Of a stretch of 30,508 nt of DNA, positions 1 through 23,187 are shown piece after piece (positions within the stretch are counted from its first letter, which is position 1; the number at the start of each line of letters is the position of its first letter). A model generated the notes under the pieces. That model ran no database searches, was not told the origin of the DNA, and saw only the letters and a list, made by a program, of their open reading frames with translations. The translations under genes were made by a program, and so were the position numbers. The stretch is taken from the NCBI GenBank assembly GCA_004022145.1, contig RCNU01000022.1; one strand, 5' to 3'. This DNA is from Paecilomyces variotii (Eukaryota).

Positions 1-358
1 CACTCGGCTCGCAGAGCACTTTGTAAACGCGTAATTTCGTTGAAAGCATCATTGAGGGTTTCATGTAGATTCGTTTCAGCTTGCAGCGCAGCAGTAGTAC
101 TGGCGTCTGCGATTTCCAACTGGCTTCGCAGCCCATCGTTATCGGCTTCCAGAAGCACTTGTTCAACGCGTAGCGTCCGAAGACTGTCGTTAGCGATAAG
201 CTGCTTTGTCAAAGCGAGTGATTTCTCAAAGGTTAGTTCAAGCTGCGCTGTCCTTAGAGACACCTGACACTGTATAAGCAACAAGCAACTGTTATGATGC
301 TGAATATGCGGCATACCTCATTAGTGATAGCATCTGGATACTCAATAGCATGTGCCAT
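1..358 (-). CDS. 5' part of a coiled-coil-like hypothetical protein; runs off the left edge
   Basis: ATG at 358-356; exon 1 358-317 (MAHAIEYPDAITNE); GTATGC...CAG intron 316-264 (an in-frame alternative CAG lies 6 nt earlier); exon 2 is open to base 1 (VSLRTAQLELTFEKSLALTKQLIANDSLRTLRVEQVLLEADNDGLRSQLE...), rich in L/E/Q heptads. Confidence 0.7.
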
Positions 359-835
359 AGTGGCGGGGTAAGACCCAATGAATAAAAAAATGATTATTGC
401 AGCGACATAGGCTGCTAATACTTGTGATTTAGCAAACCTTGTTTAGCATATATGCAATAGAGTACAAGATTCAATTACTCTGGTAGTTCTTGAAATGTCA
501 CGGGTAAACAAAATCCCCGGATTTTCTACAGTAGTGTAACCTAGAGAGACTAGGTACGCACATCGGATACCAGATCGGATAGGGAAAAGAAAGAGAAATT
601 TTAGAGGGTGCTCTATCAAACTTGATTGAGTTTATTTCCTGAATAATAGAAAATAATTTGAATTAGCCATCTGAGGACTTCTATCTTAGGACCCTGAGTC
701 CGCAAATCATAAGCCTTCCGTGCACGGTTGCCCCAGGCCTTAGGTATTTATCCTCGCGACATTTGGACATTATTCAACCTCGCGAACCGGCATCCCTCGT
801 CTTTAGATTACTGCATAAGAAGCGCAACGGCAGCG

Positions 836-2656
836 ATGGCATCCAAACGCAGGAGCATCGATGGAATTCTAGCTTCATCAGCGTCGGGAACAAGCTTACT
901 CGTTCTAATCCAAATATTTTCCAAGGGTGTGACATTTGCCGCAAATCAAGTTCTCTTACGAAACATCTCCCCAACGACATTGGGGATATCAATGCACCTC
1001 GATCTGTACTCGGTTACCGCACTGTACTTTTCTAGAGAGAGCATCAGAATTGCGATACAGAGACAACCACCAGATGATCTCACCACCAAAGAAGCGGTTT
1101 CCGTCTCAGATAACGGTCAAGCTTCGGAGCTGAAGCATCAAGCTCGAGATGCAGATGCCGCGTTAGCGTCCAAAAACAGGGCTTCCCAAGTCATTGTGAA
1201 TATGTCTTATGTGTGTCTGGGACTTGGGTTTCCACTTGTCTACTTGCTTGCTACCAGCTATCTCCATGTTGCGCAAAACGAAGTCACGGAATGCCCTTTC
1301 TTTGGAGAGAGTCTCCTTATTATGGGACTTGCTTCACTGCTAGAGCTTGCCACAGAGCCTTTCTTTGCCGTGGTACAGCAACGTATGCTCTACAGAACGC
1401 GGGCGTTAGTTGAAATGATAGCAGCTATCATCAAAAGTCTTCTAACATGTGCCGTTGCTGTCTGGGCCTCTCATGTTGGGCGGGAGGTTGGAGTCTTGCC
1501 AATGGCCCTGGGATATTTAGGCTACTCTCTTGCCCTCATGTCGAGCTATCTTGTTACAATGCTTCCAGTCTCTCGCCAGGAAAACTTCTCCTTCTGTCTC
1601 GTTCCTGTGGATTCAAGGTATGTCCCTTACTACTGCTTTCTTCCAATAAACTCAGGTGGTTGACTCCGAAGTGATGGAACGCATTATCTGGCAAGCCGAT
1701 TTTCACAGCCCCTGGTGTCACTGGGGGCTAGTGCCTTCTTTCAATCTGTTGTAAAGCACATACTCACCCAAGGTGATTCCATGATCCTTGCGGCAATGTC
1801 CAGTCTGGAAGATCAAGGAGTATATACGTTTGCATCTAATTACGGTGGTTTGATTGCGCGCATAATCTTTCAGCCCGTCGAAGATAGCAGTCGCAATCTA
1901 TTTTCCAAACTTCTGGCTTTTGGGAACAATTCAAAACCGGATCCTGAAGCCCTGGCAGCGGCTAAAGCCCATTTAATTGATATTATCCACGTATACTGGA
2001 TACTAACCATTTTAGCATTTGTCCTCGGCCCAACTTTTCTGCCTTTGATCCTGCATCTCTTGACTGGGTCTCGATGGGCATCACCAAAAGTTGATAGTCT
2101 GCTCTCGGTATACTGCTACTATATCGCATTCCTGGCCTTCAATGGGATCACGGAAGCTTTCGTGTCATCGGCCGCTGACTCTCGAGAGTTGAGGCGACAA
2201 ACAATATGGATGAGCTTCTTCTCTGCCTGCTTTGCAGCTGCGGCCTTCTTTTTTCTCAACGTTGGCGGACTGGGTGCCAATGGATTAGTATGGACTAACA
2301 TTGTCAACATGTCTCTACGGATAACCTGGAGCTATTTCTTCATTAAGTCATACTTTGGCCGTCACGGAATTAGCTTGAATCTATCGGAAATAAGTCTCGG
2401 ATATCACACTTATGGCGCAGCAATGGTTATGCTATCTGTTATGCATGCTGCCCAGTATCGACAAGGGACAGGTCTCTCAGGGCTTATAAAAGCAATTGGC
2501 TCCGGGATAGTTTTCACAGCTGTGATGTGAGTTAATCTATCTATGAGGTCACGTGTTCCTTTCTAACAACATGGCAGATTCTATCTTGAGAGAAATTTTA
2601 TAATCAAGAAATACATGGCTATCCGTGGAATGAGAAGCCTGCAGGGATCAAATTAG
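836..2656 (+). CDS. RFT1: Rft1 Man5GlcNAc2-PP-dolichol translocation protein, 3 exons (836-1617, 1672-2526, 2578-2656)
   Basis: Rft1-like motifs LIQIFSKGVTFAANQ, FSRESIRIAIQR, KHILTQGD, QGVYTFASNYGGLIARIIFQPVEDSSR and YCYYIAFLAFNGITEAF. Introns GTATGT..AAG (1618-1671) and GTGAGT..CTAAC..CAG (2527-2577) join the frames. Ends IFYLERNF...SN*. Confidence 0.93.
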
Positions 2657-2679
2657 GAAAATAGCAGATTGGTAGAAAT

Positions 2680-4313
2680 TCAGTCATCAAATGTGATCTT
2701 GGTTGCCGTCTTTCCCGTGTCAACATCTTTAAAAAATGCGCCATATGCATCATGCTGCTTCTTCTTGACTGTCGTACCGAACTTCAGTAATTCATCAGGC
2801 ACGTGCTGGTTCGCTGCTTTTAGGACATTTATCAATCTGAAATTTTAGCGCTGTTAGTCGATTCTGTGTTAGTATAGGAATGTCCGGAAATGAACTTACG
2901 CTCCCGATAGAGCTTTGTCGTTTTCAGTGAACAAAGTGATAGCATGGCCCTCAGCCCCGGCTCGCCCAGTACTGAAAATAAGGTTAGCTTATTCGTTATG
3001 CAAGTGCCTTGTACCATTACATACCGTCCAATGCGGTGAACATAGTCCTCGACAGTTAGCGGAAAGGTAACATTGAGGACCAATTTCACGGCAGGTATAT
3101 CAAGACCTCGGGCTGCAACATCCGTGGCAACGAGGATGTTGACGGAACCAGTTTTGAAAGCCTCTAGACTTTTGAACCTCTCTTGCTGACTCAAGTCGCC
3201 GTGAATGCCAGCTACTGTGAATCCTCTTGATCGTATAAATCGTTCAATCCTCATCGCCTCCTTCTTGTACAGACAAAAGACCAAGGTCTTGTTCGCACTG
3301 CCCTTTCCTCCACCGTGCTGATTCAGTAGTTGTAAGAGTCTGTTCTCTTTATCACGAGGATCAAGAACCTCCACGACCTGCTTTATTCTGGTATTCGCAC
3401 GAGGATCCGCTGATGGTTCACCGCCGATAGTGACCGTGACAGGCGACTTGGTAAATGTGGCGGCAAGGTTTCGAACCGAGGGGGGCCATGTCGCAGTAAA
3501 CATAACGGTCTGACGCTTAGAGACAGGCATAAGACTGATTATGTCTTTGATATCTTGCTCAAAACCCTTGTCTAGCATACGATCTGCTTCGTCTAGTACT
3601 AAGTACTTGACTCTCCCGAGATCCACTGCACCTTCATCTTGCAAATCTTTCAAGCGACCCGGGGTAGCAACGACGACGGATGCCTTCTTCAAGGCACTTC
3701 GTTGTTCGTCTTTCCTAACGCCTCCAAAAATACAAGTGATCTCAACATGAGCCTTGCCAGAAAGCTTCAATAGCTGATCATGGATCTGCATGGCTAGCTC
3801 TCTTGTGGGTGTGATGATCACGGCCCGGGGACGGGCGCCTTTTCCTCCCTTTTTCGAATCAACGATGTTCTTGATGCAAGGCAAACCAAAGGCCATGGTC
3901 TTTCCGCTTCCAGTCTCGGCGACACCGATGACATCGCGGCCTGCAAACAGGAAAGGCCATGTTACTGACTGGATAGGCGTTGGTGCAGAGAATCCTTTGA
4001 GAGCTTGGTAAAGGTCACCCTCGCAGGTGGGGAGGTGATCAAACGAAATTAGAGGTCGCAGTGATTGTCTCTCCGGCGAAGATTCCGCTTCCGAGTCGGT
4101 GATTTTGATCGAATTTGAGCTCAGGAACTGGTCTATCTCGGACTGCGGCAAAGCAGAAAGCGCAGCAGATTGCACGTAAGGATTGCGCTTCGATGGCGCA
4201 TTCTCATTTTCATCGGACGTTTCTTTTTTCTTTTTGGCGTCTTTGTCTGTTCTCGACTTCTTCTTTGGAGGCAGCTCTGGAGCAGACCCCTGAGGGGAGT
4301 GTCGTTTGCCCAT
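2680..4313 (-). CDS. DBP3: DEAD-box RNA helicase Dbp3 (60S biogenesis), 3 exons (4313-3025, 2971-2900, 2836-2680)
   Basis: Q motif [46 protein letters not shown], and HRIGR|TGRAG across an intron. The C-terminus [36 protein letters not shown] is typical of Dbp3. Confidence 0.95.
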
Positions 4314-4346
4314 GAGGAGAACCAGCAGTAAGTTACGATAAGATTA

Positions 4347-4374
4347 GAAAGAAAGAAAGAAAGAAAGAAAGAAA
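4347..4374. repeat. (GAAA)7 microsatellite just upstream of DBP3
   Basis: Seven direct GAAA units. Confidence 0.9.
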
Positions 4375-4393
4375 CTGAACGCTTCTTGGGAGA

Positions 4394-4404
4394 GAAAAAA
4401 TTTT
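4394..4404. promoter_or_regulatory. RRPE-like element GAAAAAATTTT upstream of DBP3
   Basis: Matches the AAAWTTTT rRNA-processing element about 80-90 nt upstream of a ribosome-biogenesis gene. Function is inferred. Confidence 0.5.
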
Positions 4405-4908
4405 CCCTTTTTTGGTAACTGATAACGGACTGAGAAGGGCGGCTTCCGACTAGCCTTCCTAAATCTTACATTAAGCTAGCCTAAATAGCAGTAGCGGTTC
4501 CGACGTCGATCGTTTAACCAACTTTAACTATTAATATTAATCTATTATTCTACATAAGTATAGACTCCTACAGCTGCCTTTTACGAGTTGCATCAATTGA
4601 TATATATGTATGTATATATATAGATATATATACAGTTATTATATTGCTACTCAGTTAAGTAATTAATTTTTTAGTATCTATTTTCCAGAAACACTACTGT
4701 ATATAAGGTAAAATTCGTAGTGTAACTTAGCGCAAAATTATCAAGCTACTATTATCCTTTTGACTACGCTAAATAAACATAACATTGGAGATGTTGTCCG
4801 TAGATAGTAATATTACTAGGTCACAAGGGAATTTGCCATTTTGCATAATACTACTCAATGACCCTGGGTCAGTTTAACTTAGCCAGCCAGGTATGTAATA
4901 TCAGAGGG

Positions 4909-6091
4909 CTAATCTATAGTACAGATGATCTTCCCCTTTGTACGGTTACTCTCGAGCAACTTATGCGCCTCCACGACTTGCTCGAAGGGAAAGGTTTTCT
5001 CGACGAAGATCTTGAAAGTGCCATCCCTGAATTTCGGCAGCGCATGTTCCACCAGTAAATCGCGCAGTTTCTTCTGGTACTGCTCATCTCGGCTCCTCAA
5101 CGTGCTGCCTTCGAATCTCAACCTCTTTCTGATGAAGCCGCTAATGTCAACACCGGCCGGCAGTGTCGAACCACTCATCTGTCCAAGCTCCACAATGCGT
5201 CCATCCCGGGCGGTTACGTCGAGGTTTCCTTGGAAATGAGCGGCTCCAACAAAATCAATAACCAGATCAACGCCCCGACCATTGGTCGCTTTTTGTATTT
5301 CCGATGCCCAATCCTGTGTTCGATAGTTATAACCGGCGGTCGCTCCAAGTTTATCCACGCAAAAGTCAATCTTCTCTTGCGATCCGGCGGTCACATAGAT
5401 AGCGCTTGCATTATCAGCCTTCGATAGCTGGATACCAGCTATTGAGACTGAAGAGGCACCGGCGTGCCAGAGTATCGACCGGCCTGGCTCAAACCCGCCA
5501 ACCAAATACATCGCTTGCGTGGCTGTTATCCACGTCTACTGGTACATGCGGATTAGTGATAATATAAACATAGCCGGTGAAAGGGGTTACTGCCTCTGGT
5601 ATTCCTGCAGTCTCTTCCCAGGACAATTCCGCGGGTTTATGAATGAGCATGGCGACGGATACTGCAATGTACTCCGCATAGGCACCTAGAATGTATAATG
5701 TCTCAACTCGATGCGCCGCAATAAGCGCTCAGGGTAAAAAGGCTAGACGGACCACCATAAGCCAAACCAAAGACATTATCGCCGATTGCGAAATCTTTTC
5801 CATCATAGTCACCAAAGCTTTCAATGGTTCCCGAAAACTCGACACCTAATGTACTGGGCGCCTGCGGCGGTACTGGATACTGGCCTTCACGCTGTAGCAA
5901 ATCCATGCGATTCAAACCGAACGCCTTCACTTTAACGAGCGCCTGGTTGCTACCAGGTACAGGAACGGGGATGGTGTCGACGAATAGTGCATCTGCCGGT
6001 CCCTTTCCACCCTTTATGCCTGTTGTAGAATGAGCAAATGAGCCTTCAGGGTCTAACAAAACTTACTAATTGCCCTCATTGTCCGTGCCAT
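4909..6091 (-). CDS. NADPH:quinone oxidoreductase, PIG3/zeta-crystallin (MDR) family, 4 exons (6091-6067, 6019-5753, 5685-~5591, 5535-4909)
   Basis: Spliced product MARTMRAISIKGGKGPADAL..VKVKAFGLNRMDLLQREGQYP..LGVEFSG..GLAYGGAYAEYI..GIPE(A)TWITATQA..HAGASSVSIAGIQL..GSTLRSR..KGKII. Introns GTAAGT..CAG, GTCCGT..TAG and GTAACC..TAG. Confidence 0.9.
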
Positions 6092-6670
6092 GTTGGAGAC
6101 AGCTGGTTGCGCAAAACAATTGGGATACGTCAAACGGTCTTGACTTTCCAGAGAGCTCGGAGTATTCGGAAAGATCGGGGAGAATAATAACAGTTTGGCG
6201 GGGGCAGTTCAACGTGACCCCGCATTATATAAGCCTACAATTTAACTAACTACATAGTTAGTTAACTAACTAACAGTTACCAAGAGCGGCAAAGGGTTTT
6301 ATATACTTTACATAATTTATCTTCTGAAGAGTTTAAGGTTTATACTTTATTCTATATGTATTTATATTTGTATATTATTTCTATTTTCTATAACTTTCTT
6401 TGTAGTGCAATAGGTATCTTAGTAGTTTACACCGTTGTGAACCACATAACTACAGTAGTAGTGGGTAGTTACTGGTAGACTGTTCGGATTATTAAATGCC
6501 GGACCCGACGCGGCCATAGCTCCAGGACACCTGTACACATCAATCAGTGTACGCTCCGAAGGACAATAGCAAGGGCAGTATCGGTCACATCAATCACTTT
6601 ACAACTCCCCCCTCCAGCCAGTGGGGTAACAAGTGTACAATACGAGTCCCATGGGATCAATCTGCCTACA

Positions 6671-7834
6671 ATGAAGTTGTTCCTTTTGGTCATTGCAGTC
6701 TTCCAGCTCTGCGGTTTCGCGTTCTGCGCAGGACCCGAGCTGGACAAATTCAGCAAATATCAAGCACAAGCCCGCAACGGTCACATCACGTTGGACGATT
6801 CTACGTACGAAGAGATTACCTCCAAACCTCGCGACTACCATGCTGCTATCCTTTTGACCGCCGTGGAGGCTCGATACGGCTGTACATTATGCCGTGATTT
6901 CCAGCCAGAATGGGAACTTGTTGCCCGGAGCTGGAACAAGGGCGCCAAGGCTGAAGATATGAAGTTGCTATTTAGCACATTGGATTTCACTAATGGGCGA
7001 CAAGCTTTTCAGAAGGTATCTCACCTCCTCCATCCAGGTCATGATAGGGTCTAACGACTAGTGAAGCTGATGCTACAAACTGCGCCCGTGGTTCTCCTTT
7101 TCCCGCCAACAATTGGACCATTTGCTCAAGTAGACGGGTCACCATTCAGGCTTGATTTTAGCGGGTGAGAACTCACATCTTCATTGCATGACCAGAGTCA
7201 GATGCTGACAATTCATTTTTCAGACCTGTATCTGCAGAGCAAGTTTACGCATGGATCAGCCGTCACCTTCCGGAGGGTAACAAACCACCACTGGTGCGGC
7301 CTGTCAACTACATGCGTCTTGTATCCGTACTCGGGATTTTGATGGGTACCCTCTCATTGCTGGCGGTCACGTCTCCTTACGTCGTACCTATCATCCGGAA
7401 TCGAAACCTTTGGGCCGCCATAAGTCTTATTGCAATCCTTCTCTTCACTAGCGGACATATGTTCAACCATATTCGCAAAGTCCCTTACGTTGCTGGTGAC
7501 GGAAGAGGGGGAATTAGCTATTTCGCCGGTGGCTTTTCAAACCAATTCGGAATGGAGACCCAGATAATCGCAGCGATCTGTAAGTGGCTCGCTCCCCAGC
7601 CTGCCTTCAATTCCGTCCCCCGCTTGGAACTATCCACTAACGGTGTTCCTAGATGGAATTTTGTCTTTTGCGACTATTGCTCTAGCGTTAAAGGTGCCCC
7701 GTATGTCGGATACAAAGGCTCAACAACTGGCTGTAGTTATCTGGGGGGTTATATTGCTTGGAGTCTATAGCTTTCTCCTCAGTGTTTTCAGGATAAAAAA
7801 TGGCGGCTATCCGTTCTTTTTGCCGCCATTTTAG
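6671..7834 (+). CDS. OST3: Oligosaccharyltransferase gamma subunit, OST3/OST6 family, 4 exons (6671-7015, 7067-7164, 7224-7579, 7653-7834)
   Basis: Signal peptide, thioredoxin-like CTLC, SGHMFNHIRKVPY, FSNQFGMETQIIAAIYG and C-terminal FRIKNGGYPFFLPPF. Three introns with CTAAC/CTGAC branch sites keep the frame. Confidence 0.92.
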
Positions 7835-8041
7835 GATTCCTACTAATGGTAGAGTACTAGAGCGCTAACTATAAGATTACATGAATAGAAGAAATCATTC
7901 AGAAATATTAAGAACAACAATAGTAACACCAGTAGCTTAGAAGTGCTTCTATACTGTGTGTATTGGGAAGTCACTCATTTTACTTTCCCTCGGCTCATTC
8001 AGGCTTATATAGCGTGCTAAGGACTGAGTACATATCAAATA

Positions 8042-8143
8042 GGCAAGGTGGCCGAGTGGTCTAAGGCGCACGGTTCAGGTTTCACCTGATCCATCACATT
8101 CCGTGTCATGAAAATGGCGTGGGTTCGAATCCCACCCTTGTCA
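8042..8143 (+). tRNA. tRNA-Leu(CAG) with a 20-nt intron (8080-8099)
   Basis: Acceptor stem GGCAAGG/CCTTGTC plus discriminator A; D arm TGGCCGAGTGGTCTAAGGCG; anticodon stem CACGG/CCGTG with TT-CAG-G (CAG at 8076-8078); long variable arm; T arm GTGGGTTCGAATCCCAC; TTTTT Pol III terminator at 8148-8152. Confidence 0.95.
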
Positions 8144-8279
8144 TATGTTTTTGTCTCTTATAATATTATTATAAAATTTTTTTTTTATAAAATTATATAT
8201 ATAATATAATATTTATTTATATTTTATTATTAAATAAATATTGTTTAACTTATTTTAAAAGCTAGCTTTTTTAAAAAAA

Positions 8280-8565
8280 ATTTAATTTAAATTAATTTTA
8301 ATATAATATTTAAATAAAGTAAAAGAATTTAAAGATAAAAGATATTTTAGCTATTTTAAAAGAGATAAGAGCTTAATTTTAAGCTAAATTAATTAATATA
8401 TTTCTTATAAGAAATAAATAAATTATTAAATATTTTTTAAGAAGTTCTTTTTATTATTTTTTAATATTTCTTAAAGCCTTTAATTTATTTATTAATAATA
8501 AAAAATAATAAATATAATTATTAAACTTTATAAAGAAATTTAATCTTTAAAAAATAAATAATTAA
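8280..8565 (+). mobile_element. Older Copia-related gag fragment
   Basis: 8323-8425 (aagaatttaaagataaaagatattttagctattttaaaagagataag) resembles the sequence from about 10280 on. 8520-8565 resembles the segment at about 17930-17975. Confidence 0.5.
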
Positions 8566-9281
8566 AGTATTATAAAATAGTAATTAAAATTAATAAAAGA
8601 AAATTATATAATTAATATAATTTTACTTTAATAAAATTAAAGCTTTAAGAAAAACTTATTTTTAAATTTTCTTTTTATTAAAGTATAGGCTTAAGAAATA
8701 AGTTAAAATAAATAGAATAAAGTAATTAATACTAGAACTAGCTATAAAATCTTTATTTAGTTAACTTAAGCTAAAAATAAGCTATTATAAATAGACTTAA
8801 TAAATAAAATATAGCTTAAAAGGCTTAAATTTAAATTAAGCTATATATTAAAGATATCTTTATAAGGTTATATAATTTATTATATAAGTATTAACTAATA
8901 AATTCTCTTAAATAATTTATTTCTTATATTAATACTATAATAATATTTTTCTTTTTAAAATTAAGCTTTATTAAAATTATCTTTTAACTTTAACTTATTT
9001 AAATAATAATAATAAGAATTAATAATAATTTTCTAAGTATATTATAAGTAATATATAAGCTCTTTAATTAAGTTATTATAATTTATTAATTATAATATAT
9101 TATTAAAAGTTTAAAATATCTTTAATAACTTATTTTTTAATATAATTAACTTTAATAAATAGTAATAAGGATTATCTTTATTTAAGTATAATATCTTTAA
9201 TAATAAAGTAAAGTAAGCTAATATTAAATATAATATAAATATATATTAAAATAAGTAAGTTAAGCTAATAAATATATAGGC

Positions 9282-9556
9282 TATTATAAAATAGTAGTTA
9301 AGACTAGTAAATTTTAGTATAATAAAGATTTTACTTTAAGAAAATCTTTAGAGATAATTTTACTTTAATAAAATTAAGCAGCTTAGAGAAATTATTTTTT
9401 AAGCCCTATATAAAATCTATTACCTTAATTAAAAAAATATAGATATATACTTTATATCTATTATATATACTAATACTCTTTTTCCTTAAATATTATTAAT
9501 TCTTTAAGCTATTAGATTAATTTAGAGAATTTTATTTAAACCTATTTTTTTTAACT
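9282..9556 (+). repeat. Copia 5' LTR (copy 1)
   Basis: 275-bp direct repeat of 21677-21952 and 22423-22697; starts TATT (RIP of TGTT). Confidence 0.85.
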
Positions 9557-10445
9557 AATTATAAGCTTAAGTTTATAATAGCTTAAGAAAAATAGCTATA
9601 TAATAAAAACTATTTTATCTTAAATATTTAAGTTTAAACTAGTAATAATAAGCTATTCTTATATAAGAGAATTTATAATAAAACTATTCTAATACTATAT
9701 TAAATATTAAATTTAATAGGGGTTAAATCTTATTAAAGGTTAAAATATTAACTTACTATTATTATATTTTTAATAAATAATATTAAAAATAAGAAAAAAA
9801 AACCTATTTTTATTCTTTTAAAGAAAAACTATAAAAAATAGTTTATTTATATAAAAAGATAGCTTATTAATAAAGATTACTAAAGAGCTATTAAGCTTAT
9901 TAAAAAGCTATATAATAATTAGTTTAATAAGGCTAATATAGCTACTTAATACTAGATTACTAAATATTTATTTAAAGATAATTAAAATAAATTTATTAAC
10001 TCTAATAATATATATATATTATAGAAGGCTCTATAAATAAAATATATAAAAACTCTTTTTAGTTAAAAGCGCTAGCTTATTTAATTATTTATATACTTTT
10101 AAATAACTCTTAAATAAATAATCTTAAATACTTAAAGTTAATTATAATAAATAGAAAAGAGAATTATAATATCTAATAATATAATATTTTTTTTAGCTAA
10201 GCTTAAGACTAAAATATAATAACTATTTTTAATATTATTTAAAAAATATATTATAATTAGAATAATAATTAATATATATAAGAATTTAAAAATAGATAAT
10301 ATTCTAGCTATTTTAAAAAAATAAAAACTTAACTTTAAATAAAATTAACTATTATATTCTTAATAAAAAATAAATAAATTCTTATTAAATATTATATCTA
10401 TAAAGAAAATTATTATATTAAAGATTATCTCTTTTTATTTATTAC

Positions 10446-10802
10446 TGTAAAGAGCCGGGGTAAGGAAGCTCTTTATCGGAGGTAACTAGTCGGACTAGTT
10501 AAACAGAATATAAGATAAGAGGTAAAGACGCAGGCGAGTAATAGTCTATATATAGTAGAGTTAAAGATCAGATTCAGTAGTGATCAGAATAAATTGCTAA
10601 TCTGTCTAACTTCTATTCCTTTAGGGGTTATTTATCTATCTATCTGTTCTACTAGGTCATCTAAATAACCTAGTCTTAACAGCTCTATCTATAACTAGCT
10701 GATCTAACTATTATATATAGCTCTAGTTATCTTATCATCTTTTATTATCTATCCTAGGTCTTAGCAGGTCTAGATTAGGTATTATAGCCCTAGTTCATAA
10801 CA
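10446..10802 (-). repeat. Gypsy 3' LTR
   Basis: Colinear, ungapped repeat of 17466-17822. Confidence 0.95.
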
Positions 10803-11212
10803 GTATCCCCCCCTATTAAAAGGCTCGTCCCGAGCTGTGTGAAGTTTATTATATAGATCTAGATATTTGGGCGTAGCTATAATAACAGTAGTAAATTGCT
10901 ATTAAAGCATGCTTATTATGTGAATTTATCTAATAATAGCTTTATTTTAATATTTTCACCTAGGAGATTAAAAGTGTTTCTATTCTTTGTTAATTAACTT
11001 CTGTCCTCCTGCCTATATATTAAACTATCCTTTCCCTAGTTCTGCAGCTTATTTGGTGCTGTTTTTAATAATTTAAACATAGAAATAGCTGACATTTATA
11101 TAGGTATATTAAAAATAGGATTTTTGAATTGTTTTCTTTATAGATCCTGCGCGTGCGCTTAATATAAGTTATAACCCTTCAGGTTTGTATAATAGTGCTA
11201 ATTAATATAACA

Positions 11213-12472
11213 ATGCCTCCTAAGCGCTTTAAGCGCGTTTTGTTTCTTCTGGGCTCTCCTAATAAGGCCCCTATGGCTAGCCCCAAGCTATTATAGCTGT
11301 CGACTAAAGATTACCTGCTCAATTATTAGCTTATAGATAATAAGTAGCTTAATAAGCTGTCTCCTCCCCCTATATCTCCGACTGCCGATGTGATATCAGA
11401 ACTAACAACTCCTTCTTTATAGATTACTCTATTTACCGCTATTAATAATAGTGATAGAGTGTCTCCGCCAGGGGTATCTGTAGAGGACCCCTTAGTAGAG
11501 GAGCACCTCCTATCTAAGATACGCAGGGATCGGTTTATATCCAGTGATATAATTCCTCTTATATATGAGGAGGTATAGGCTAGTCTATTGCATCCTCTTC
11601 GGAGATTGAAATGTAGTTATAATAATATTGCTCTTACTGTGCCCGCAGCAAAGGAAACTCCTGCTTAGCTAGCTAAAAAACTATAAAGGAGGTTAAAAAT
11701 AAAGGAGGTCCCTAGCACGGAGACTTAGGGAACTTAGGATACTATTATAACTTCTATTCCTGGAGTTAAAGCTACTATTAAGACGCCTCCTCCCCAGATT
11801 AATCCAGCTCTCACTGAGATAGTAATATTAACTACTGTTACTAATGCTGATACAGTAATAGATTGTCCTGCTGCCTTTAAGGCAGACCCTATTATAAATC
11901 CTTTTAGCCCAGAGAGTTTAACCAAAGACTTTCTTCCTGTCCCACAGGAGATGTATCTTTATTATTTAAAGGCCCTGGTGCAGGATTTAAAGCAATAATG
12001 TATCTATCCTTATATTAATACGAAGTATCTCTATTATAAGGGCTTTTATAAGCTATATATCCCTATACTGCTAGTGTATAAGGCCGAGTTAACTTATATT
12101 TAAAGTCTTAGCTAAGAGGCTTACCTCTTAAATAATTTAGAGTCTTTTAATAAGGCTGTAAATATATATATCTCTTCTATAGAGGCATATATGTAGAAAT
12201 CTATATCTAAGACTACTAAATACTAGCTCAGTGCTGCTGCTGTCTTACTAACCCTATTATATTTTAAATTGGAGTTATTGCATCTTCTCCAGGAGTTATA
12301 TTAAATAATCTGTTTATTAAACTATAATATCTTGCGTATAGCAAATATACTTACCCAGTTATAAGGACTGCCTCCGTTCTCTATTAAGGAGGAGGAAGAT
12401 ATTGTTAAGGGATTTTATAGTGATAAAGTAGCTAAATAGGATAATATTATAGGCCTATATTTAGAGCCTTAG
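11213..12472 (+). pseudogene. Antisense extra ORF inside the Gypsy element, about 410 codons, with a Zn2Cys6-like cluster
   Basis: ATG CCT CCT AAG CGC (MPPKR) at 11213; one frame with protein-like composition, broken only by TAG/TAA codons that are explicable as RIP of Gln/Trp/Arg codons. The end is approximate. Confidence 0.7.
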
Positions 12473-12599
12473 CTGGGGCTAGCTTAGTTGAATTAAATTA
12501 TTCCTATTAGGATTCCTTTCTTCTATATTCTCTTTAAAACTCCTAAACCTTATAAGAAAATTAGAGAAAGAGTAATACACATAGCAATATATTTAATAA

Positions 12600-15500
12600 T
12601 AGTTAAAAACCTAGTAGGAGAAAAGTACTATTACCTATCTGTCTTGCTTCGCTTTCTGCTTTATAGCTCTCTTTTACTTTGCCTTTATTTAGGCGGCTTA
12701 TCTGTATTAAGAGCTTTACTAGGGTTCTTATTGTAATACTCCTCTAAAGCTTTAGTCATATATATAAGATCTTCTAATATCTGCTATAAGTTCTTATATA
12801 AAGAATATCCTTTCTATTTCACTAGGAACTGTTTTTTTTTATAAAAAGTCTGTTTGCTAAGGATTTCTTCTACCTCTTATTCCTATTCTCCATTAATAAG
12901 AACTGGGTCTAGCTATTTAGGTTCTATTCCTTCTTATTAATTATAGGGCTCTAGCAGAGAGATATAAAACACCAGATATATCCTACCTAAGCTCTTTGGC
13001 AGTTATAATTAATATGCTTATTTTCTAATTATCTTAATTACTTTATAAGGTCTAGAAAATTAGTAGTCTAATTTCTTATTAGATTAATTAGTTTATAGAT
13101 TCTTTATCGATAGAAGAACTTAATCCCTAACTTTATATAATTTAGGCTTATGCTTTTTATTATAATACTTTACTTGCACCTTAATAGCATATTATAAGTG
13201 CTTCTCTAACTTTGCCCTAATATCTATTAATTCTTTAAGTTGTTCTTTAACAGCGGGAATATTTAATCTTATTCTTATATTGTATTTATCCCAGCTATTA
13301 AGATTAAATCTATAAAAGGCCTTAAATAGTAAGCATTTAGTAGTAGAATACTTTATATTATTATAGGTATACTCCGCTGCACCTAATAATAACGCCCAGT
13401 TATCTTAACAATAATTTATGTATATCTTTAGATAATACTCTAAGGTCTGATTTTAGCACTCTATCTGCCTATCTATCTGTAGATAAAAAGCAGTATTTAT
13501 TAATTAGGTAATTTGTATATACTAATAAAGCTTAGTCTAGTATTTATTAATAAATATTAATCCCTAATTTAAAACAATTAATATCGGGGGATTAAATTAG
13601 TAATATACCCTTTCTATAATTAGGTCAGCCAGGTCTTCTGCTATAATTGTTTCTTAGGTTAAGATATATAGAGCTATCTTAGAGTATCGGTCTATAACTA
13701 CTAAGATTATATTATACTTAACTCTTTATTAAGTTAATAATAGCAGGCTAATAATAAAATTTATTAATATATTTTACTATAGTCTTTCTGCTATAGGTAA
13801 TAAGCTTAACTGCCTATACAGCTTATGTTTAAGAATTTAATTCCTTTTACAGATATTACAGGTCTTTATATATTCTTATATATTATTCCACATACTTGGC
13901 CAGTAGAACTTTTGCCTAAGTAGCTTTTCTATAGTTTTAACTCCTTAATAGCTAGCATATAAATTATTATGATAAATTTATAGTAATTCTTGCTTCAGCA
14001 AATATTTATCTGGGATATAAATTTAATCTTATCTCTATAGCAGACCCTTACTATCTATAGTCTATTTAAAGCTTCTAGATTAATTAGTCTCTAAACTACT
14101 AATCTTCTCTATTATAAAGGTATCCCTCTGCTAGAGCTGTCTAAGCAATTCTAGAAGATTAGGCTTTAGAGAATCCTAGATTATTTCCCTATTAATAACC
14201 TTTAATACTAATAGTCTTAGCAGCAAGTGTTTGCGACTACCTGTGCTATTCTCTTTATTTAAAATATATAGTTTCAGTTTCTTTTATAGGGTAGGCAGCA
14301 GTCTAATCTCTTACTCCTCTTCTAAGAGTTTATAGTCTAGTCTCTAAGATAGTGTATTAGCTATATTTAAATAACCCGGCTTATATTTAATATAAAAGTT
14401 ATAGCCTGCCAGTAGTTTTGCCTATCTTATCTGCCTATTATTTAAAGTCTTTATTATAAAGAAGTAGCGCAGGTTTATATAGTCAGTCTATACCCGAGCA
14501 GAGTATTTATTATTATCTAAATAGTATCTCTAGTATTTAAAAGCTTTAACTATTACTAATAGTTCCTAGTCGTATATTTTATATTAATATTCAATTTCAG
14601 TAAATTTCCTTAAGAAGTATGTAACTAGATGCTACTGCCTTATTACCTTACTTATAATCTATAGTAGAATAGTAGCTAAAGCAAATCCTAAGGCATCTAT
14701 AGCTACTATAATCAGCTTCTCCAGATTATAATGCCGCAATACTAGCGGTTCAATAAATACAGTTTTTAAGTCTTTAAATACTTTCTGTGCTTTAAGTATC
14801 TATTCTAATAAGCCCATCTTTTTATTATACTTACTGCCCTTAAGCAAATCTATTAATAGCGTTGTAATAGAAGAGTAATTATAGATAAATCTTCTGAAAA
14901 AACTTGTAAATCCTAGAAAGACCTAAATATTATAAAAAGTCTTTAATATAGGCCAATTGCAAATTGTTTTAATTCTAAAGAAATCTATTTTAATTCTATC
15001 TTGTCCCACAATAAATCTAAGGAAGAAGACTTCCTCTTTATAGAATTTGCATTTGCTTAGCTTTATATATAAATTATGCTTATAAAGTCTCTCTAGCACT
15101 TTAGAGATATACTATTTATATTCTTTTTTATCTATTAAAAAGATCAGGATATTGTCTAAGTATATAATGCAGTATATATCTAACAGGCCCCTTAGCGCTG
15201 TATTAATATAGGCTTAAAATATAGCCGGAGCATTATATAATCTGAACGGTATAATAAGATATTTAAAATAGCCATATTAAGTTCTAAATGCCATCTTCTA
15301 TTTATCTCCCCTTTATATATATATTCTATAGTAGGCTTTTTGGAGGTTTAGTTTCATAAAGAATCTTACACCTACTAATTAATCTAGTATCTTATTTATC
15401 TATAGCAGTAGATAGCAATTCTTAATTATTTAGGTATTTAGTCCTTAATAATTAATACATAAGCGCAGTTTATTATCTTTTTTAAGGATAAAGATAATTA

Positions 15501-17442
15501 GTAATCTGGCTGGACTAGTTAAAGCCCAAATCTAACCTTATTATTATATGTCTTTTAGATACTTTTATAGTATATCTAGTTCTCTAGCAAAGTATAGGTA
15601 TAGAGGCCTCTATAGCAGTATCTCGCTGTTAATTAGCTCTATTATATAGGTCCTAATATCTTCTGGCAGGGGTAATATTTTAGCTCCCTCTTCTAAGAAG
15701 ATATCTTAGAATTATACATAGTATAGGGGAAATTAAATTTCTTCCTTATCTATTTTAATATATTCCCCTTATATATAATAAATCGGTTAATCTCGCGCTA
15801 TCTCTATAAATGCTTATAGGGTTTAAATCTTAACCTAGGGTAAAGCCTCCTGCTAATATCTCTAAGTCAGGCATCTCTAATCTATAATAGGATTATTGTA
15901 GTATAGCCATAATAATCCTAATATTATATTCTGGTTCTTCTTAATTATATTAAGTTCCTATATAGAAATAATTTGAAAGTTAATTTTATATTGTTTTATC
16001 TTCCCCTCTAAGTCCTTTACCTTAATAGTAACTGGGAAATAGCTATAGATTGGCATTGTTTAATCTCCTATTTATAAGGCACATCCGACTAGCTTTTAGG
16101 GGAACCCTTTATATCTATAGCATAGTAAAAAATCACAGTTAATAAAGTTAGTGTGTGCTTAGGAGTTAAGAAGTGCATTTGTTTTTATAGTATAATCTTT
16201 AATTAGTATATCTACTAAAATTATAAACTCTAGCTCTACGCCTTTAAGTTGCTGGAGCACCCTAAGCCTAACACCTTTATCTTTTAAAAATTCGGAGTCC
16301 TTTATAGTCTTTTTAGGACACTATTTACTAATATATCTGTTTTTCTTATAATTAAAGTATCGCCCTTCTTTTATTAACTATTCTCGCTCCTCTAAGATTT
16401 TAAACTTCCTTAGTTTGCATTCTGAATAGGTCTTTATAGAGGTTAACTAAAATAATTTATCCTTTTACTTATCCTTTATATATAAGTAGAATTAATCCTT
16501 CTCCCTCGCATAAAAATAAAATTATTCCTTCTTTTTATAGTCTTTCAATTGGGTTTTAATAGAGTTTTAAAGACTCTGTTTAACAACTATAGCTTCTGAA
16601 GCTAGTTATAATAGATCTGTCAAGATATATATATACTTAAACAACTAGTTCTATACATCTTCCCATAATATAGAGAAGAAAGTTTAGCTCTAGATATTAT
16701 CCTCTAGGGCTAATTTAGCTTTATAAAGCTTAAATTTATTGCGGAAGTCCTAAGCGGTCTGTTCTAGCTATTACTTTAGCCTCTAGAATTATATAGCGGA
16801 TATCTAGGGTCTAAATCTCAGGTCCTTAAGACAATCTAATAGCTACTGCTAAAATCCCTGCTAAGAAGTTATAGCTAAAGCAGGGGGTTTATAACTTTAA
16901 GCTATTCTATAATTATCCGAAAGCAAAGCAGCGACATAATTTATCTTACTTTCCTCAATTTAAAATGTAGATACATTATAGGTAAAGTATTACTCTATAT
17001 AGCGGCACTAATAATAGTAAGTATTTAGATCCTTAGCTCGGTATTAATAAGGTTCAGACAGTTTAGCGATAGATCTAGATTTAGGAGTTGCATTAATCTA
17101 TTTTATTAACTCTATAATTACAACTATACTTATCTTTTCTAATAATCCTTAAGTTGCATCTTATAGAGCTCCTATTGCTGTATTATTGACTTAACATAAT
17201 ACATCTAGCGAGATAATAGGTCCGGCACTAACAGTATTTAATTCTAGTTAAAGACTAGGGTCTATAATACTTCTTAGATTAGCTAGATTTCCTAGATCTA
17301 TAGCAGTTATTAATCCAGGCTAAGCGCCAGGCTCTGAACTATATTCAGGTTCGGATTCAAACCACACCAGTCTTAGGTTATTTATAGATTCTCTATGCTA
17401 ATCTTCAGCACTACTTCCTGATATCTCTTCTTTTTCTAATAT
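12600..17442 (-). pseudogene. Gypsy gag-pol in a single frame: Gag zinc knuckle, protease, RT, RNase H, integrase, chromodomain
   Basis: RYFNYKKNRYISK*CP = CCHC knuckle (~16315-16365); ALLNS*AHTNFI protease (~16141-16176); GDK*KMAFRT*YGYFKYLIIPFRLYNAPAIF* (~15215-15310); YLDN = YLDD (15151-15162); KKLDY*FSRPYKV = GPY/F (~13040-13078); E*EVEEILS..FLVK*KGY..NL* chromodomain (~12780-12885). The knuckle, protease, RT and chromodomain were checked to share one frame. Ends are approximate. Confidence 0.92.
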
Positions 17443-17465
17443 GCTGCTAGTCGAGCGATTCAAAC

Positions 17466-17822
17466 TATAAAGAGCTGGGGTAAAGAAGCTCTTTATTAGA
17501 GGTAACTAGTCGGACTAGTTAAATAGAATATAAAATAAGAGATAGAGATATAGGCGAGTAGCAGTCTACGCATAGTAGAGTTAAAAATCAGATTTAGTAG
17601 TAATCAGAATAAATTGCTAATCTATCTAACTTCTATTCCTTTAGGGATTATTTATCTATCTATCTGTTCTATTAGGTCATCTAGATAACCTAGTCTTAAC
17701 AGCTCTATCTATAACTAGCTAATCTAACTATTATATATAGCTCTAGTCATCTTGTTATCCTTTATTATCTATCCTAGGTCTTGGCAGGTCCGGATTAGGT
17801 ATCGTAGCCCTAGTTCATAACA
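17466..17822 (-). repeat. Gypsy 5' LTR
   Basis: Repeat of 10446-10802, followed by the TSD ATTAC. Confidence 0.95.
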
Positions 17823-20800
17823 ATTACTTAAAGAAGTATAAGAAATAATTAAAAATAAAGAAAGAAATCTCTTAAATAAATATTTAATAATTTTATTATT
17901 TAAGATAAGATAATAATAGAAATAATTAATAAAATTTATAAGAAGATTTAATCTTTAAAAAATAAAAGATTAAAAAATAAGAAATAAAGAGTATATAATA
18001 TAAAAGAAATCTTAGATATTAAAAAAAGCTAATCTTAATTAAAATTCTTAGCCTTAATTACTTTTAATAACTAAGTCTTATATAAAATTACTTATCTTTT
18101 AAAAGATATTACTAATAAAAATTTATTTTAATAATATATAGATAATAGTATTAGTTTATATATAATTAATAAAAACTATTATTTTAAAGAACTACTAATC
18201 TAGATTTAATAAAGGTATATTTATATAAATAAAGAGATCTTATATTTAGAATATATAGAGATAGTTATTTTAAAAGATAAAAATAAGAAGATATTAAACT
18301 TAGAAAATATATTACTTATATTAAACCTTAGGGTAAATCTTTTATTAACTAAAATATTTTACTAATAATTAAATATACGCAGATATTTTAATAAAAGAAT
18401 AATATCTATATTAAATAAGTTAGATAAGGTTATAATTTAAAATACTATTAAATATAGAATTTATATTATTAAGAGAGTTTTTTTAAACTAAATACTTAAA
18501 TTATAATATATACCTATTATATTACTCTTTATTAAAGATACTCTTAATACTATAATTATAGACTAAGAAAAAGAATTTTATTAAAATAAAATTAAGAAGA
18601 AGTATTAACTATAGTATAAAAGAATTAACTATTTTAAACTTAAAAAGGTTAGAAACTTATATAATTTAACTATATTAAAGAAGCCTATTAAAATAATAAT
18701 AGACTATTAATATATAATATATACTATAGCTAATATTAGAAATAAAAAAGAGACTATTAATATATAAAAGGCTAATATTCTTAAATTTATCTATATAAAT
18801 ATATATAGTTAAATATTAAAATCTAAAAATAAATATATTTACTTTTTAATAGTTATAGATAATTTTTTAAGAAAAATATAAGTATTTCTAATAAAAGCTA
18901 AATCTAATACTGCCCCTATCTTAAATAAATAAAAAAAGAGATTAAGATAATAATAGGTCTTTAAATTCTTAGTATATAATTAAATAATATATTAGAATTT
19001 AAAAATCTTTTTAAGACTTAAAGGAAATAGTTTAATATCTATTATAAACTAATAATTCTATATATATTAATATAAAATAGAGCTATAAAATAAATATATT
19101 AAACTATTAAAAAAGGAATAAGAGTTATATTTAAAAATTTAAACCTTTTAGTTAAATTATAGATAGAGATAGCTTAAACTAATATATATATTAAAAATAA
19201 AATATTAAATAGACTAATAATTAATAGGGTTTAAATATCTTTAGAAAAAGCTTTTACTAGAGTTAAGCTATTAATTAATTACTTAAAAGTATAGAGATAT
19301 TAAGCGGTATTATATATAAACTTAAAATCTTTACTATAAGGTATATAAAGAGATAAATTAATAAATTAAGGCAGAATCTATATTTTTATAAAATATATTA
19401 AGGGAATAAATAAATAATAGAAAGTTTAAGCTCTAGATATAAAAAAGACTATTAAAACCTATTAAGCTAAGTTCTTTAAAAATAAATTAAAAAAAGATTT
19501 AAATCTTAAGATTCTTAGAAGATTATTATTAAATATAATATTAATAAAGAATTTAAAAGGTTAACTAATAACTTAGCCTATTATCTTAAATATATATATA
19601 CCTTTAAATAAAAAGAAGAATAATATAAATAATTAAGAAAAGAATTATAAAGAAGTTCTAATTTTTCCTTAAAAAGAAAAAAAATATTTTATTAAAAGAA
19701 AATTAAAATATTTTTTTAAAAAGAAAAAGAAACTTTTTATTATAATAAAATTATAGAATAAGAGAAAATATTTAATTATTCTTATTTTAATAATTTAAAT
19801 AATTATAAAAACTTATAAATAAACTTCTTATTTTTATTAAGTAAATAAGTTATATCTTATATAAAGATTCTCTATATAATAAAATATAAGAGAAAGGAGA
19901 TTAAGTTATTAAATAATAAATAAGATATTAAGAAGTTATATTAAGTAATACTTATACTAAATCTTCTATCTTTAAGTATTAATATAGATTAAGAGAATAT
20001 ATAAAATAAGTATTAAATACTATAATAGCAGTATATATAATAAAAAATATATTTTAATTTTAAACTTATATTATACTATAATTAATAACTCTATTTAAAG
20101 TAAACTATAGTAAAATATATTTAAAGCTAAAATAAATATACTTTAAATAAATAGAATTTTTAAAGTAGTTATACTATTATTAAGAGCTAATATTATAATT
20201 AATTATTAAATATTAGCTATAAAATATAATTTAAATAGTTCTCTTTAGAAGCTTAAGATATATCTTATTATTTAAGAGTTTATTTAGAAATATAATATTA
20301 ATTTTAAATATATCTTTACTTCTATCTTATAATATAATATAATATAAATATTTTTAGCTATTATTATAATAGAGAATTATAAGTATTATATTATAAATAT
20401 TAATAATATCTTTATAAAATTAATATTAAAGAAAGAAATCTATATAATACTTTTACGAAAAATAAATATATTATTAAAAATAATATTAAAAGTTTTTTAA
20501 TCTTTATATAGTTTAAAATAAGCTATAAAAGATTAGAATTAAACCTATATAAAAATACTCTAGAAAATAAGTTTTATATAAACCAATATTAATCTATATT
20601 TATTATAATACTTAAAGAAAGAAATCTTATTCTTAATATATATTAATAATATTTTAATTAATATAAAATAAATAGAGAGTATTTATTAGTTTAAATAAGA
20701 GTTTAAATTAATATATAAAATAAAGAACTTAAGAGAAATAAAGAAAATTCTTAATATTTAAGTTATTTAAAATAAGTAAGACTAAATATTAATAATAGAC

Positions 20801-21676
20801 TAATCTTATTATATTAAAGAACTCTTATTATAATATAAAATAAGTAAAAAAAAGATATATTTAATTAATATCTTATTAAATAAATATAATTCTCTAAAAT
20901 TATTTAGCCTTTAAAATAAAAAAATAAATTAAAGAGAGTATTAAAAAATTATTAATAGCTTAATTTATTTAATAATTTTAATAAGACTAAATATTATATT
21001 TATAATAAGCAGATTAAGTTAATATCTATTAAATCTATTTAAAAGATATTTTAAAATATTAAAGTCTCTTATAAAATATCTATAATTAATTATATACTTT
21101 AGTCTTAAATTTAATATAAACTAAGACTAGTAATTTATTAAATATTTAAACTTAAATTATATAATAGATAAAACTAATTAAATATTAATTTTAAGGAATA
21201 TTTTTATTTTAGTTAATAGCCTAATAAGCTAATTAAATAAAAAATAAAAATTTATTATAACTTTAACTATAAAGGCTAAATATATAATTATATATTAAAC
21301 TATAAAATAGTCTTAATAATTAGCCCTTTTTTTAAAAAATATAAGATATAGATATTATATTAGTTTAAATAAATTTAAATTAATAATAAGAGAAGAATAA
21401 GCTTTTATTATTAATTCTTTAGTTAAAGTCTATAAAAATAACTAAATATTACTATTATTAATTAGAGATATTTATATTTATAAGAGATTAAAATATATTA
21501 GTATTATATATTACTATATATATAACTTATATTAAAAAATAGGATTAATATTAAATTTATTAGAATATAGAATATAATAGTAAATAGTTTTATTAAACTA
21601 TTACTAAAGGTAAACTTCTTAAAATTTTTAAATTAACTAGAATTAATTAACTTAATAAGTTTAAACTAAGAAGAAA

Positions 21677-21952
21677 TATTATAAAATAGTAATTAAGACT
21701 AGTAAGTTTTAATATAATAAAGATTTTACTTTAAAAAAAATCTTTAGAGATAATTTTACTTTAATAAAATTAAATAGCTTAAAGAAATTATTTCTTAAGT
21801 TTTATATAAAATTTATTATTTTAATTAAAAAAATATAGATATATACTTTATATTTATTATATGCGCTAATACTCTTTTTCCTTAAATATTATTAGCCCTT
21901 TAAGCTATTAGATTAATCTAGAGAATTTTATTTAAACTTATTCTTTTTAACT
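21677..21952 (+). repeat. Copia 3' LTR (copy 1)
   Basis: Repeat of 9282-9556 with one extra A, preceded by a purine tract. Confidence 0.85.
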
Positions 21953-23187
21953 TAAAGAATATTTTATTATCTTTTATATCTATAGTATAAGCTAATATAC
22001 CTTTTTCTCTAAGTATAATATTAGCCTCTTTAAGCTATTAAATTAGTTTAAGAAATTTTAATTAAGAACTTATTCTTTTTAAGTTAATTAATTAAAATAT
22101 TTTAAACTAAGCTATAAGTAGCTTTTATAGAGTAATAAAGATATTAGCTAATAATTTTATTTTCTTATTTTAATAATAAGAATATTTAATAAAGAGTATT
22201 ATTAAGAGAGAAAATAATATAAAAACTAATTAATTTATTAAGCTATAGCTATTTTAAGATATTATTATTATATATAATATAAATAAAAGCCTTTTTTAAT
22301 TCTTAAAGAAATATTTTAATATTCTTAAATTAAAAATATTATATACTTAAATATCTTATAAATATCTTTAATATCTTCTTAAACTTCTTTAAGATATAAT
22401 TAAGACTATTATATATAAGAACTATTATAAAATAATAATTAGAACTAGTAAATTCTAGTATAATAAAGATTTTATTTTAAGAAAATCTTTAAGAATAATT
22501 TTATTTTAATAAAATTAAGCAGCTTAGAGAAATTATTTCTTAAGCTTTATATAAAATCTATTACCTTAACTAAGAATATATAGATATATATTTTATATCT
22601 ATTATATATGCTAATACTTTTTCTTTTTAAATATTATTAACTCTTTAAGTTATTAAATTAATCTAGAGAATTTTATTTAAACCTATTCTTTTTAATTAAT
22701 TATAAAATTAGATCGGGATATAGCTCGGCCCAGCCGGGGCTAAGCTCAGCCTACCTGAAAAGCTCAGCCCACCCAAGAAAAATCTAGGTTCAGCTCAGAC
22801 ACTAAGTTAGTTTTAGTATAGTATTTAGGTGGGCTTAGTATATATACAGCTTATATAATTTATAATAAAGTTTTTATATTATATTGCAGTAAACTATATT
22901 TATTAAGAACTATATATAGCATATGCTCTGTACTATATTGTAATATATGCTAAGTATAGGTTAGAGCAACGCTAAGATATATATAGGGAGCTAGAACTGA
23001 TGTTATTCTGCGCAGTTTATTAAGGTGGTATATATAAAGGCGGTTGTTGAGTATATGCTGAAGCGATATTAGAATCTTATTATATAGAAGTTTATATTGT
23101 TTATATTATTTTTAACCTCCCTAATAATGCCTTTACCCTGCTTTTATAGTACTATAGTCTACTCTTTTATATTATTACTATATAATT

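Follow-up and report, generated by a model that had tools for sequence, protein, structure and literature searches.

A RIP-killed antisense accessory gene with a candidate zinc-binding module in a Ty3/Gypsy chromovirus of Paecilomyces variotii

A stretch of 30,508 nucleotides from Paecilomyces variotii (contig RCNU01000022.1, assembly GCA_004022145.1), hereafter called the window, carries on its minus strand a Ty3/Gypsy element of 7,377 bp. Between the end of the element's pol gene and its 3' long terminal repeat (LTR) lies a reading frame on the opposite strand. This frame is best explained as a dead copy, killed by repeat-induced point mutation (RIP), of an accessory gene of a Paecilomyces Ty3/Gypsy chromovirus, for whose intact product a role as a nuclear zinc-binding regulator is proposed; we give this reading a probability of about 0.6. 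The points counted for a real gene are the depletion of stop codons, the relatives of the encoded protein, the RIP pattern and the match of six cysteines. The intact gene product is about 240 residues long, or up to 408 if an N-terminal extension is real. Its location, antisense and flanked by pol and the 3' LTR, is a known one for extra genes and is shared by brtn of the Boty element.

The initial annotation of this DNA had described a plus-strand frame at 11213-12472 that translates as MPPKR... and runs opposite to the element between the chromodomain and the polypurine tract, and the frame is present as described. Over 11951-12064 it reads MYLYYLKALVQDLKQ*CIYPYINTKYLYYKGFYKLYIP, again as first given. 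From 11213 onward it is open without any frameshift, and the 17 in-frame stops that precede the final stop are all TAA or TAG, with no TGA among them. The other five frames of 11213-12472 contain 23-54 stops each. When 2000 first-order Markov shuffles were used as the null, the frame proved to be depleted in stops (18 observed vs 38.5 expected), and 0 of the 2000 shuffles were as low, whether the single frame or the best of six was considered. The C-terminal half (11780-12472) is stop-depleted on its own (P 0.007, best of six).

Relatives of the encoded protein were sought by a full HMMER scan of 1.84 billion representatives, in which the query was the frame with X at its stops. Three were found, P0002, P0003 and P0004 (E 2e-66 to 2.7e-19), which bears out the reading of the opposite-strand frame as what RIP has left of a real gene for a protein. 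P0002 (207 aa, E 2e-66, 64% identity) is a hypothetical protein of P. variotii, P0003 (82 aa, E 4e-23) comes from a contig of 952 nt, and P0004 (243 aa, E 2.7e-19, 37% identity) is an intact hypothetical protein of P. lecythidis. Word-based protein searches with P0004 and with the four-sequence alignment A1 returned only P0002 and P0004, and metagenome contig scans with A1 and P0003 returned no relative. As far as these collections show, the protein family is confined to Paecilomyces. P0004 and P0002 share 39% identity over 86% of their length (E 6.8e-31), and all gaps between them are in frame, a pattern of conservation that suggests selection at the protein level.

Homology also bears on the extent of the gene. 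At its beginning, codon 179 of the frame (ATA, 11747) is aligned to the Met with which P0002 starts. At the other end, the two intact relatives stop just short of window codon 409, which makes the TAG at 12437-12439 the probable native stop. The RIP-inactivated core of the antisense accessory gene (11747-12439, plus strand), defined by the HMMER hits P0002-P0004 and alignment A1, comprises codons 179-408 together with this probable native stop. Thus the extent claimed at first holds in part: homology argues for coding status over codons 179-408, and over these codons alone, and the end at 12470-12472 is probably not native, the last 33 bases lying past the gene.

The copy of the accessory gene in the window was killed by RIP. 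Its 207 residues aligned with P0002 include 132 identical and 75 different ones, and for 66 of the 75 a C>T or G>A change on the window side is enough (in shuffled pairings 11% on average and at most 19%); of the remaining 9, 7 show on inspection the same type of change in P0002. Similarly, the 30 differences from P0003 comprise 18 such changes on the window side and 12 on the side of P0003. The window stops align to R/Q/R/Q/Q in P0002 and to Q/Q/Q/Q in P0003; 16 Gln, Arg or Trp codons have been turned into stops in the window, and five of the six Cys codons discussed below have changed from TGT to TAT, the typical TpG to TpA change of RIP. The TpA/ApT ratio is 1.42 in the open reading frame (ORF) and 1.39 in pol, compared with 0.85 in the genes at 1-7500. 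According to the available part of the report on this species, RIP is experimentally active in P. variotii with the same TpG to TpA bias (PMC6300479).

The six-Cys module occupies 11954-12058 (plus strand), where five TAT codons and one TGT codon are aligned to the six Cys of P0004. The codons are as the initial annotation had listed them, TAT at 11954, 11963, 12026, 12035 and 12056 and TGT at 11999, and its restoration of the five TAT codons to Cys turned out to be exact: C93, C96, C108, C117, C120 and C127 of P0004 fall on codons 11954, 11963, 11999, 12026, 12035 and 12056. P0004 contains six Cys in total, with the spacing C-x2-C-x11-C-x8-C-x2-C-x6-C. C3, C4 and C5 are kept in P0002, C3 and C6 in P0003 and C3 alone in the window; each of C3-C6 is therefore Cys in at least one P. 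variotii copy. Genes destroyed by RIP can thus be read from the direction of the mutations alone, the six-Cys reconstruction having matched residue for residue. Within the 35 residues of the P0004 module there are 13 Lys, Arg or His and one acidic residue. The six Cys probably bind zinc in one way or another.

Behind the module the first reading had placed a helical region and an acidic patch, and both are conserved in alignment A1, the helices being predicted by AlphaFold2. The AlphaFold2 model, built from A1, has a mean predicted local distance difference test score (pLDDT) of 45.5, with 65-80 over residues 131-180 and 43-54 over residues 181-230. Its three predicted helices in P0004 (132-151, 154-182 and 196-220) map to 12071-12364 of the window (plus strand), and the conserved GLPPFSD motif with the acidic tail, ...PPFSIKEEEDIVKGFY..., lies at 12374-12436 (plus strand), as located by A1 and the same mapping. 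The intact protein is accordingly modelled as a very basic six-Cys module, followed by about 90 residues of predicted helices and then by GLPPFSD and the acidic tail.

In the mechanism proposed here, the protein would come from an antisense transcript whose start lies in the 3' LTR or close to it. Its six Cys would bind zinc, the basic module would bind nucleic acid in the nucleus, and the protein would regulate the element's own expression or integration. The acidic tail would be the effector or activation part; GAL4-type factors have the same layout. From the copy in the window no protein would be expressed. A zinc-cluster-like DNA-binding regulator is a reasonable candidate for the role of the intact product, and the nuclear DNA-binding regulator or silencing suppressor of the initial annotation is likewise a putative role.

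The N-terminus of P0004 was also considered. Residues 1-14 are MPPIRRRGRGRPRK, and the segment RRRGRGRPRK contains the motif RGRP, which we take to be the core of an AT-hook. Such a motif would fit binding to AT-rich, RIP-mutated DNA; a counterpart in the window copy is not demonstrable. A RIP-aware alignment of P0004 residues 1-40, with the RGRP motif, to window codons 1-245 was no better than chance, 23% of shuffles scoring equally high.

The element that carries the gene shows the TG..CA LTR ends, the 5-bp target duplication and the order of reverse transcriptase, RNase H and integrase in pol that characterize Ty3/Gypsy elements. Both LTRs are 357 bp long and lie on the minus strand, the 3' LTR at 10446-10802 and the 5' LTR at 17466-17822; they were found by repeat search and alignment as direct repeats of 90% identity with a spacing of 7020, and many reads and contigs stop at 10800. 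The target-site duplication ATTAC stands beside both LTR ends (10441-10445 on the left and 17823-17827 on the right), and near 29970-29985, where a paralogue of the host repeat is uninterrupted, it occurs once, as ATTAT. The element borders are fixed, because both flanks are contiguous in this paralogous copy near 29970.

Gag-pol is a single minus-strand frame at 12628-17463, recognized by its Pfam domains, its stop count and its chromovirus relatives, and interrupted by many RIP stops (118 stops in 1626 codons, 0 TGA). Its domain matches are RVT_1 (15016-15489), RNase H (14401-14790), Integrase_H2C2 (13840-13998) and SH3_Tf2-1 (12943-13125), all on the minus strand. At the C-terminus of pol a putative remnant of a chromodomain is seen at 12790-12876 (minus strand) as a weak PF00385 match (E 0.014, 15.7 bits, under the 25.1 cut-off), and PF00385 is present in 24 of the 24 best pol relatives. 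A protein homology search with pol gave 62 chromoviruses at 35-45% identity, no Paecilomyces-named protein being among these 62 relatives. From the end of pol (~12628) to the 3' LTR (10802) the extra DNA spans about 1.8 kb. Adjoining the LTR, 10803-10820 on the minus strand reads ...AGGGGGGGATAC, and the G7 run on the element's sense strand is, to judge from its position, the polypurine tract. The spacer between it and the extra ORF (10821-11212, plus strand) is covered by other copies and may contain a promoter of the extra ORF; over 10803-11212 a stop-poor frame was found in none of the six frames (10-17 stops per 136 codons).

Both reads and contigs uphold the view that the extra region lies within the element and recurs in its other copies. 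Four runs were aligned to 10700-13400 at 80% likeness. Run X10, which consists of raw reads, gave 5470 reads of 80-99% likeness; these stem from other copies, because none of them reaches 99% or more. These reads lie 373-426 deep over 11974-12155, compared with 245-392 over pol. Transitions account for 756 of the 826 variable places in X10, 583 of them C>T or G>A with the window as reference and the other 173 in the opposite direction, and the window copy is less mutated than the others at most sites. Other copies cover all 30 bins in X10, X1 and X3, the copies not being counted singly. In addition, diverged contigs join the ORF to pol (X1 record 5, 12357-13127, 117 differences) and the spacer to the start of the ORF (X3 record 9, 11106-11551, 83 differences), and the N-terminal part of the frame occurs in at least 5-7 other contigs of run X1, which show variant letters within 11275-11397 (the first 40 of 1110 variable places). 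Since reads and contigs from other copies cover it and bridging contigs connect it to its neighbours, the extra region is part of a multi-copy element family. No second copy of it was found within the window. A nested transposon as the origin of the region was considered and rejected, as there are no terminal repeats and only short repeats of 14-22 nt flank it.

One further contig, from a run labelled organism B, should be mentioned beside these copies. Record 17 of run X5 (11748-11992, 245 nt) is only 6 letters off the RIP-mutated copy in the window, and the other X5 contigs differ from the window by 10-18%. The near-identity could have its source in a close relative, in a sample that was mislabelled or mixed, or in a transfer of the element.

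Antisense extra ORFs between pol and the 3' LTR (aORF-3R) have been described in the plant elements Grande (gene23), RIRE2, Retand and PvRetro13 and in the fungal element Boty (brtn); as stated in the available part of that source, they occur in most copies of a family, and their functions are unknown, with nuclear roles suspected (PMC7264820). The Paecilomyces ORF (11213/11747-12439, plus strand) has the same position, between the pol end at ~12628 (minus strand) and the 3' LTR at 10446-10802, and the protein conservation expected of such genes is seen in the 39% identity and in-frame gaps of P0004 and P0002. The plant aORF-3R resemble it in position and orientation; they are likened to it by description and differ in belonging to plants and mostly to non-chromovirus lineages, and no zinc-cluster-like module is described for them in the parts of the literature at hand.

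Among the closest parallels is brtn, which Boty-like Gypsy chromoviruses of Botrytis cinerea and Sclerotinia carry as an extra gene in antisense (Zhao et al. 2011, Virology 417:248, cited after PMC7264820, PMC8365987 and PMC4227169). Like the Paecilomyces gene, whose element has a putative chromodomain remnant, brtn belongs to a fungal chromodomain Ty3/Gypsy element and lies on the opposite strand between pol and the 3' LTR. Unlike it, brtn is found in Leotiomycetes rather than Eurotiomycetes, and the two are likened by position and orientation, not by sequence; in the descriptions of brtn within the available parts of PMC7264820, PMC8365987 and PMC4227169 a Cys6 module is unmentioned. No Botrytis protein is among the three HMMER hits. 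HBZ of HTLV-1, a nuclear bZIP factor that is encoded in antisense, with transcription from the 3' LTR, offers an analogy only: it is likewise a regulatory-type protein on the opposite strand beside the 3' LTR, and it differs in coming from an animal retrovirus and in having an unrelated fold.

Within Paecilomyces, the element may belong to the family of Tn123, to which it is likened by description. Tn123 is a putative Tf2-type retrotransposon of 7,091 bp from P. variotii CBS 144490, with RIP-mutated copies in AT-rich regions (PMC6300479). The two have in common the genus (which the analysis took from P0002), the size (7,091 vs 7,377 bp), a Tf2-type pol and their fate under RIP; an extra ORF is unmentioned in the available part of the account of Tn123 (PMC6300479).

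Several observations weigh against an element-borne zinc-binding regulator. In the N-terminal half of the frame (11213-11779) stop depletion is not significant (P 0.17), and no homologue from the HMMER scan covers 11213-11746. This N-terminal extension (plus strand; MPPKR..., Pro/Ser/Thr-rich, 9 stops in 189 codons) is thus candidate coding sequence only, and it has in common with the start of P0004 only MPP[KI]R. The depth of X10 reads is only 21-74 over 11246-11700, and this part is more diverged or missing in many copies. At C1 and C2 the window and P0002, the two P. variotii sequences that extend there, have Tyr, and Cys is seen in P0004 only. P0004 itself is represented by one sequence on one contig, and linkage to a Gypsy element is seen in P. 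variotii only. For residues 1-128, which include the Cys module, AlphaFold2 gives a pLDDT below 50. At E<=10, Pfam offers no family for P0001-P0004 or for a 55-residue Cys fragment of P0004, although very weak matches can escape the HMMER filters, and a PDB sequence search with A1, also at E<=10, gave no match. Finally, the C2-C3 spacing of 11 falls outside canonical Zn2Cys6, the other distances being within range, and Foldseek against the PDB with the poor model, which had been suggested as a check of the cluster, brought no support, with nothing at E<=0.001 and generic helical bundles at E>=0.35.

GAL4-type Zn2Cys6 clusters follow the pattern C-x2-C-x6-C-x5-12-C-x2-C-x6-8-C. The initial annotation had likened the module to this class, and membership was not supported by the tests: no PF00172 or other Pfam match appeared at E<=10, and the spacing between C2 and C3 is 11 where the pattern wants 6. 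Among three sequence-based tests the six Cys alone agree with the class, and the spacing and the profile hidden Markov model (HMM) do not. Like PF00172 proteins, the Paecilomyces protein has six Cys in a basic stretch, distances x8/x2/x6 within range, helices and an acidic C-terminal tail behind them, and an occurrence in fungi only; unlike them, its module is internal rather than N-terminal, the gene is borne by a retroelement, C2 and C3 are 11 residues apart and there is no HMM match. The single lead towards this fold comes from the ESM Atlas structure neighbours described in the next paragraph. A true, divergent binuclear Zn2Cys6 cluster is possible, yet we regard it as doubtful.

The protein could instead be real and borne by the element and have some other zinc fold. 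For instance, the two CxxC knuckles may form a Zn(Cys)4 site and C3 and C6 with His a second one, and the target may be RNA or protein, as for a chaperone or a cofactor of nuclear import or integration. The absence of a Zn_clus match at E<=10, the C2-C3 spacing of 11, the CxxC pairs 20 residues apart and the four His inside the P0004 module all fit such a fold, and nuclear roles and import are listed as options for antisense extra ORFs in the available part of PMC7264820. However, the P. variotii copies have Q, Y, K and F/L/R at the positions of these His, which are thus not conserved, and the second half of the spacing (x8, x2, x6) fits canonical Zn2Cys6. Among structure neighbours of the ESM Atlas's own model of residues 88-136, 7 of 10 rows are Zn_clus-carrying clusters, with template modelling (TM) scores by query of 0.64-0.78, which mean little for short stretches; Zn_clus itself is the aligned part in two rows. 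A complex prediction with two copies of P0004 88-225 and four Zn scored 0.02 and is no evidence either way. Another zinc fold is therefore kept as a tentative alternative, with a modest share of our belief.

The ESM Atlas clusters nearest to P0004 by features (0.86-0.91) are from Ascomycota, with 63, 52 and 157 members and lengths of 228, 198 and 132 aa. These three clusters are also near the Cys module by structure (TM by query 0.67-0.78) and may represent a wider family of the module. In the most far-reaching version, the element would encode its own divergent Zn2Cys6-type transcription factor, a dimeric zinc-binding activator that is transcribed antisense and binds LTR or host promoters, and the three Ascomycota clusters would represent that module, dispersed by retroelements. 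We think this improbable as a whole; if true, the fungal-specific zinc-cluster fold would have a mobile, element-borne branch. Nothing relevant to a retroelement-borne zinc cluster in fungi was found in the literature searched.

The main rival to an accessory gene of the element is a captured host gene. Here the P. variotii Gypsy family would have acquired, in reverse orientation, all or part of a cellular gene, P0004 would be the ordinary host version in P. lecythidis, and the sequence would have no role in the element. It is consistent with this that P0004 lies on one contig of 734 kb and is annotated as an ordinary hypothetical protein, that its N-terminus (MPPIRRRGRGRPRK, with RGRP) is unlike that of the window frame, and that gene capture by LTR elements is documented in the available part of PMC7264820. 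Nevertheless, P0004 and the element ORF share only 37-39% identity, far under the expectation for a recent capture from a sister-species orthologue, and the extra region is present in many copies at the standard site of conserved antisense extra ORFs. Moreover, transduced genes are usually sense-oriented, as far as the same source reports (PMC7264820). Capture of a host gene is on balance unlikely.

An element-borne accessory gene could also matter through its transcript, an antisense or double-stranded RNA that regulates the element while the protein does not count. A regulatory antisense RNA has been raised as a possible role of antisense extra ORFs in the available part of PMC7264820. Conservation is, however, seen at the protein level at 39% identity, with retention of all six Cys, of the helices and of the tail and with gaps in frame only, and an RNA-only role is disfavoured because it would not keep the frame open; we consider it highly improbable. 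Lastly, a chance frame in AT-rich DNA, with the Cys chosen among many Tyr codons, might have been suspected from the ten Tyr in the 38-residue stretch, which allow a selective Cys pattern, and from the non-significant N-terminal half, but it is refuted for codons 179-408 by the 0 of 2000 shuffles, the relatives down to E 2e-66 and the six P0004 Cys on the named codons, and it keeps next to no probability.

The role of the antisense extra genes of LTR retrotransposons is an open question, as the available part of PMC7264820 presents it. With the accessory gene as the preferred explanation, the Paecilomyces family provides a handle on this question, in that it combines a recognizable basic module that is probably zinc-binding, an acidic tail, an intact member in P0004 and a genetically tractable genus with experimentally active RIP (for the last, the available part of PMC6300479). 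Should the protein bind DNA, it would be a case, in a fungus, of a regulator encoded by a retroelement.

The element is inserted in a mutated neighbourhood. Window positions 1-7800 carry ordinary genes with a GC content of 0.40-0.51, among them Rft1, a DEAD-box helicase, a zinc alcohol dehydrogenase and OST3/OST6. This gene island stops sharply at ~7800, with a drop in GC from 0.46 to 0.16 over less than 1 kb, and the OST3/OST6 family gene (6547-7770), the last of the island, abuts the RIP-mutated block. Outside 1-7800 the window is AT-rich (GC 0.11 to 0.38). A repeat family with an extremely AT-rich composition (GC 0.11-0.16) occupies 8000-10445, 17823-22000 and 29100-30508 and served as the insertion target of the Gypsy element; 9256-10444 and 17823-18122 together match 29101-30275 at 82-90% identity, so that an uninterrupted 'empty site' lies near 29970. 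This host repeat is older and more mutated than the Gypsy element, because its RIP product index of 0.26 is far lower. Over 22000-29100 (GC 0.20-0.25), six frames read through stops gave no Pfam domain. Within the same AT-rich block, a unit of 147 nt is repeated three times in tandem at 25265-25705, the second and third units showing 83% and 64% identity to the first.

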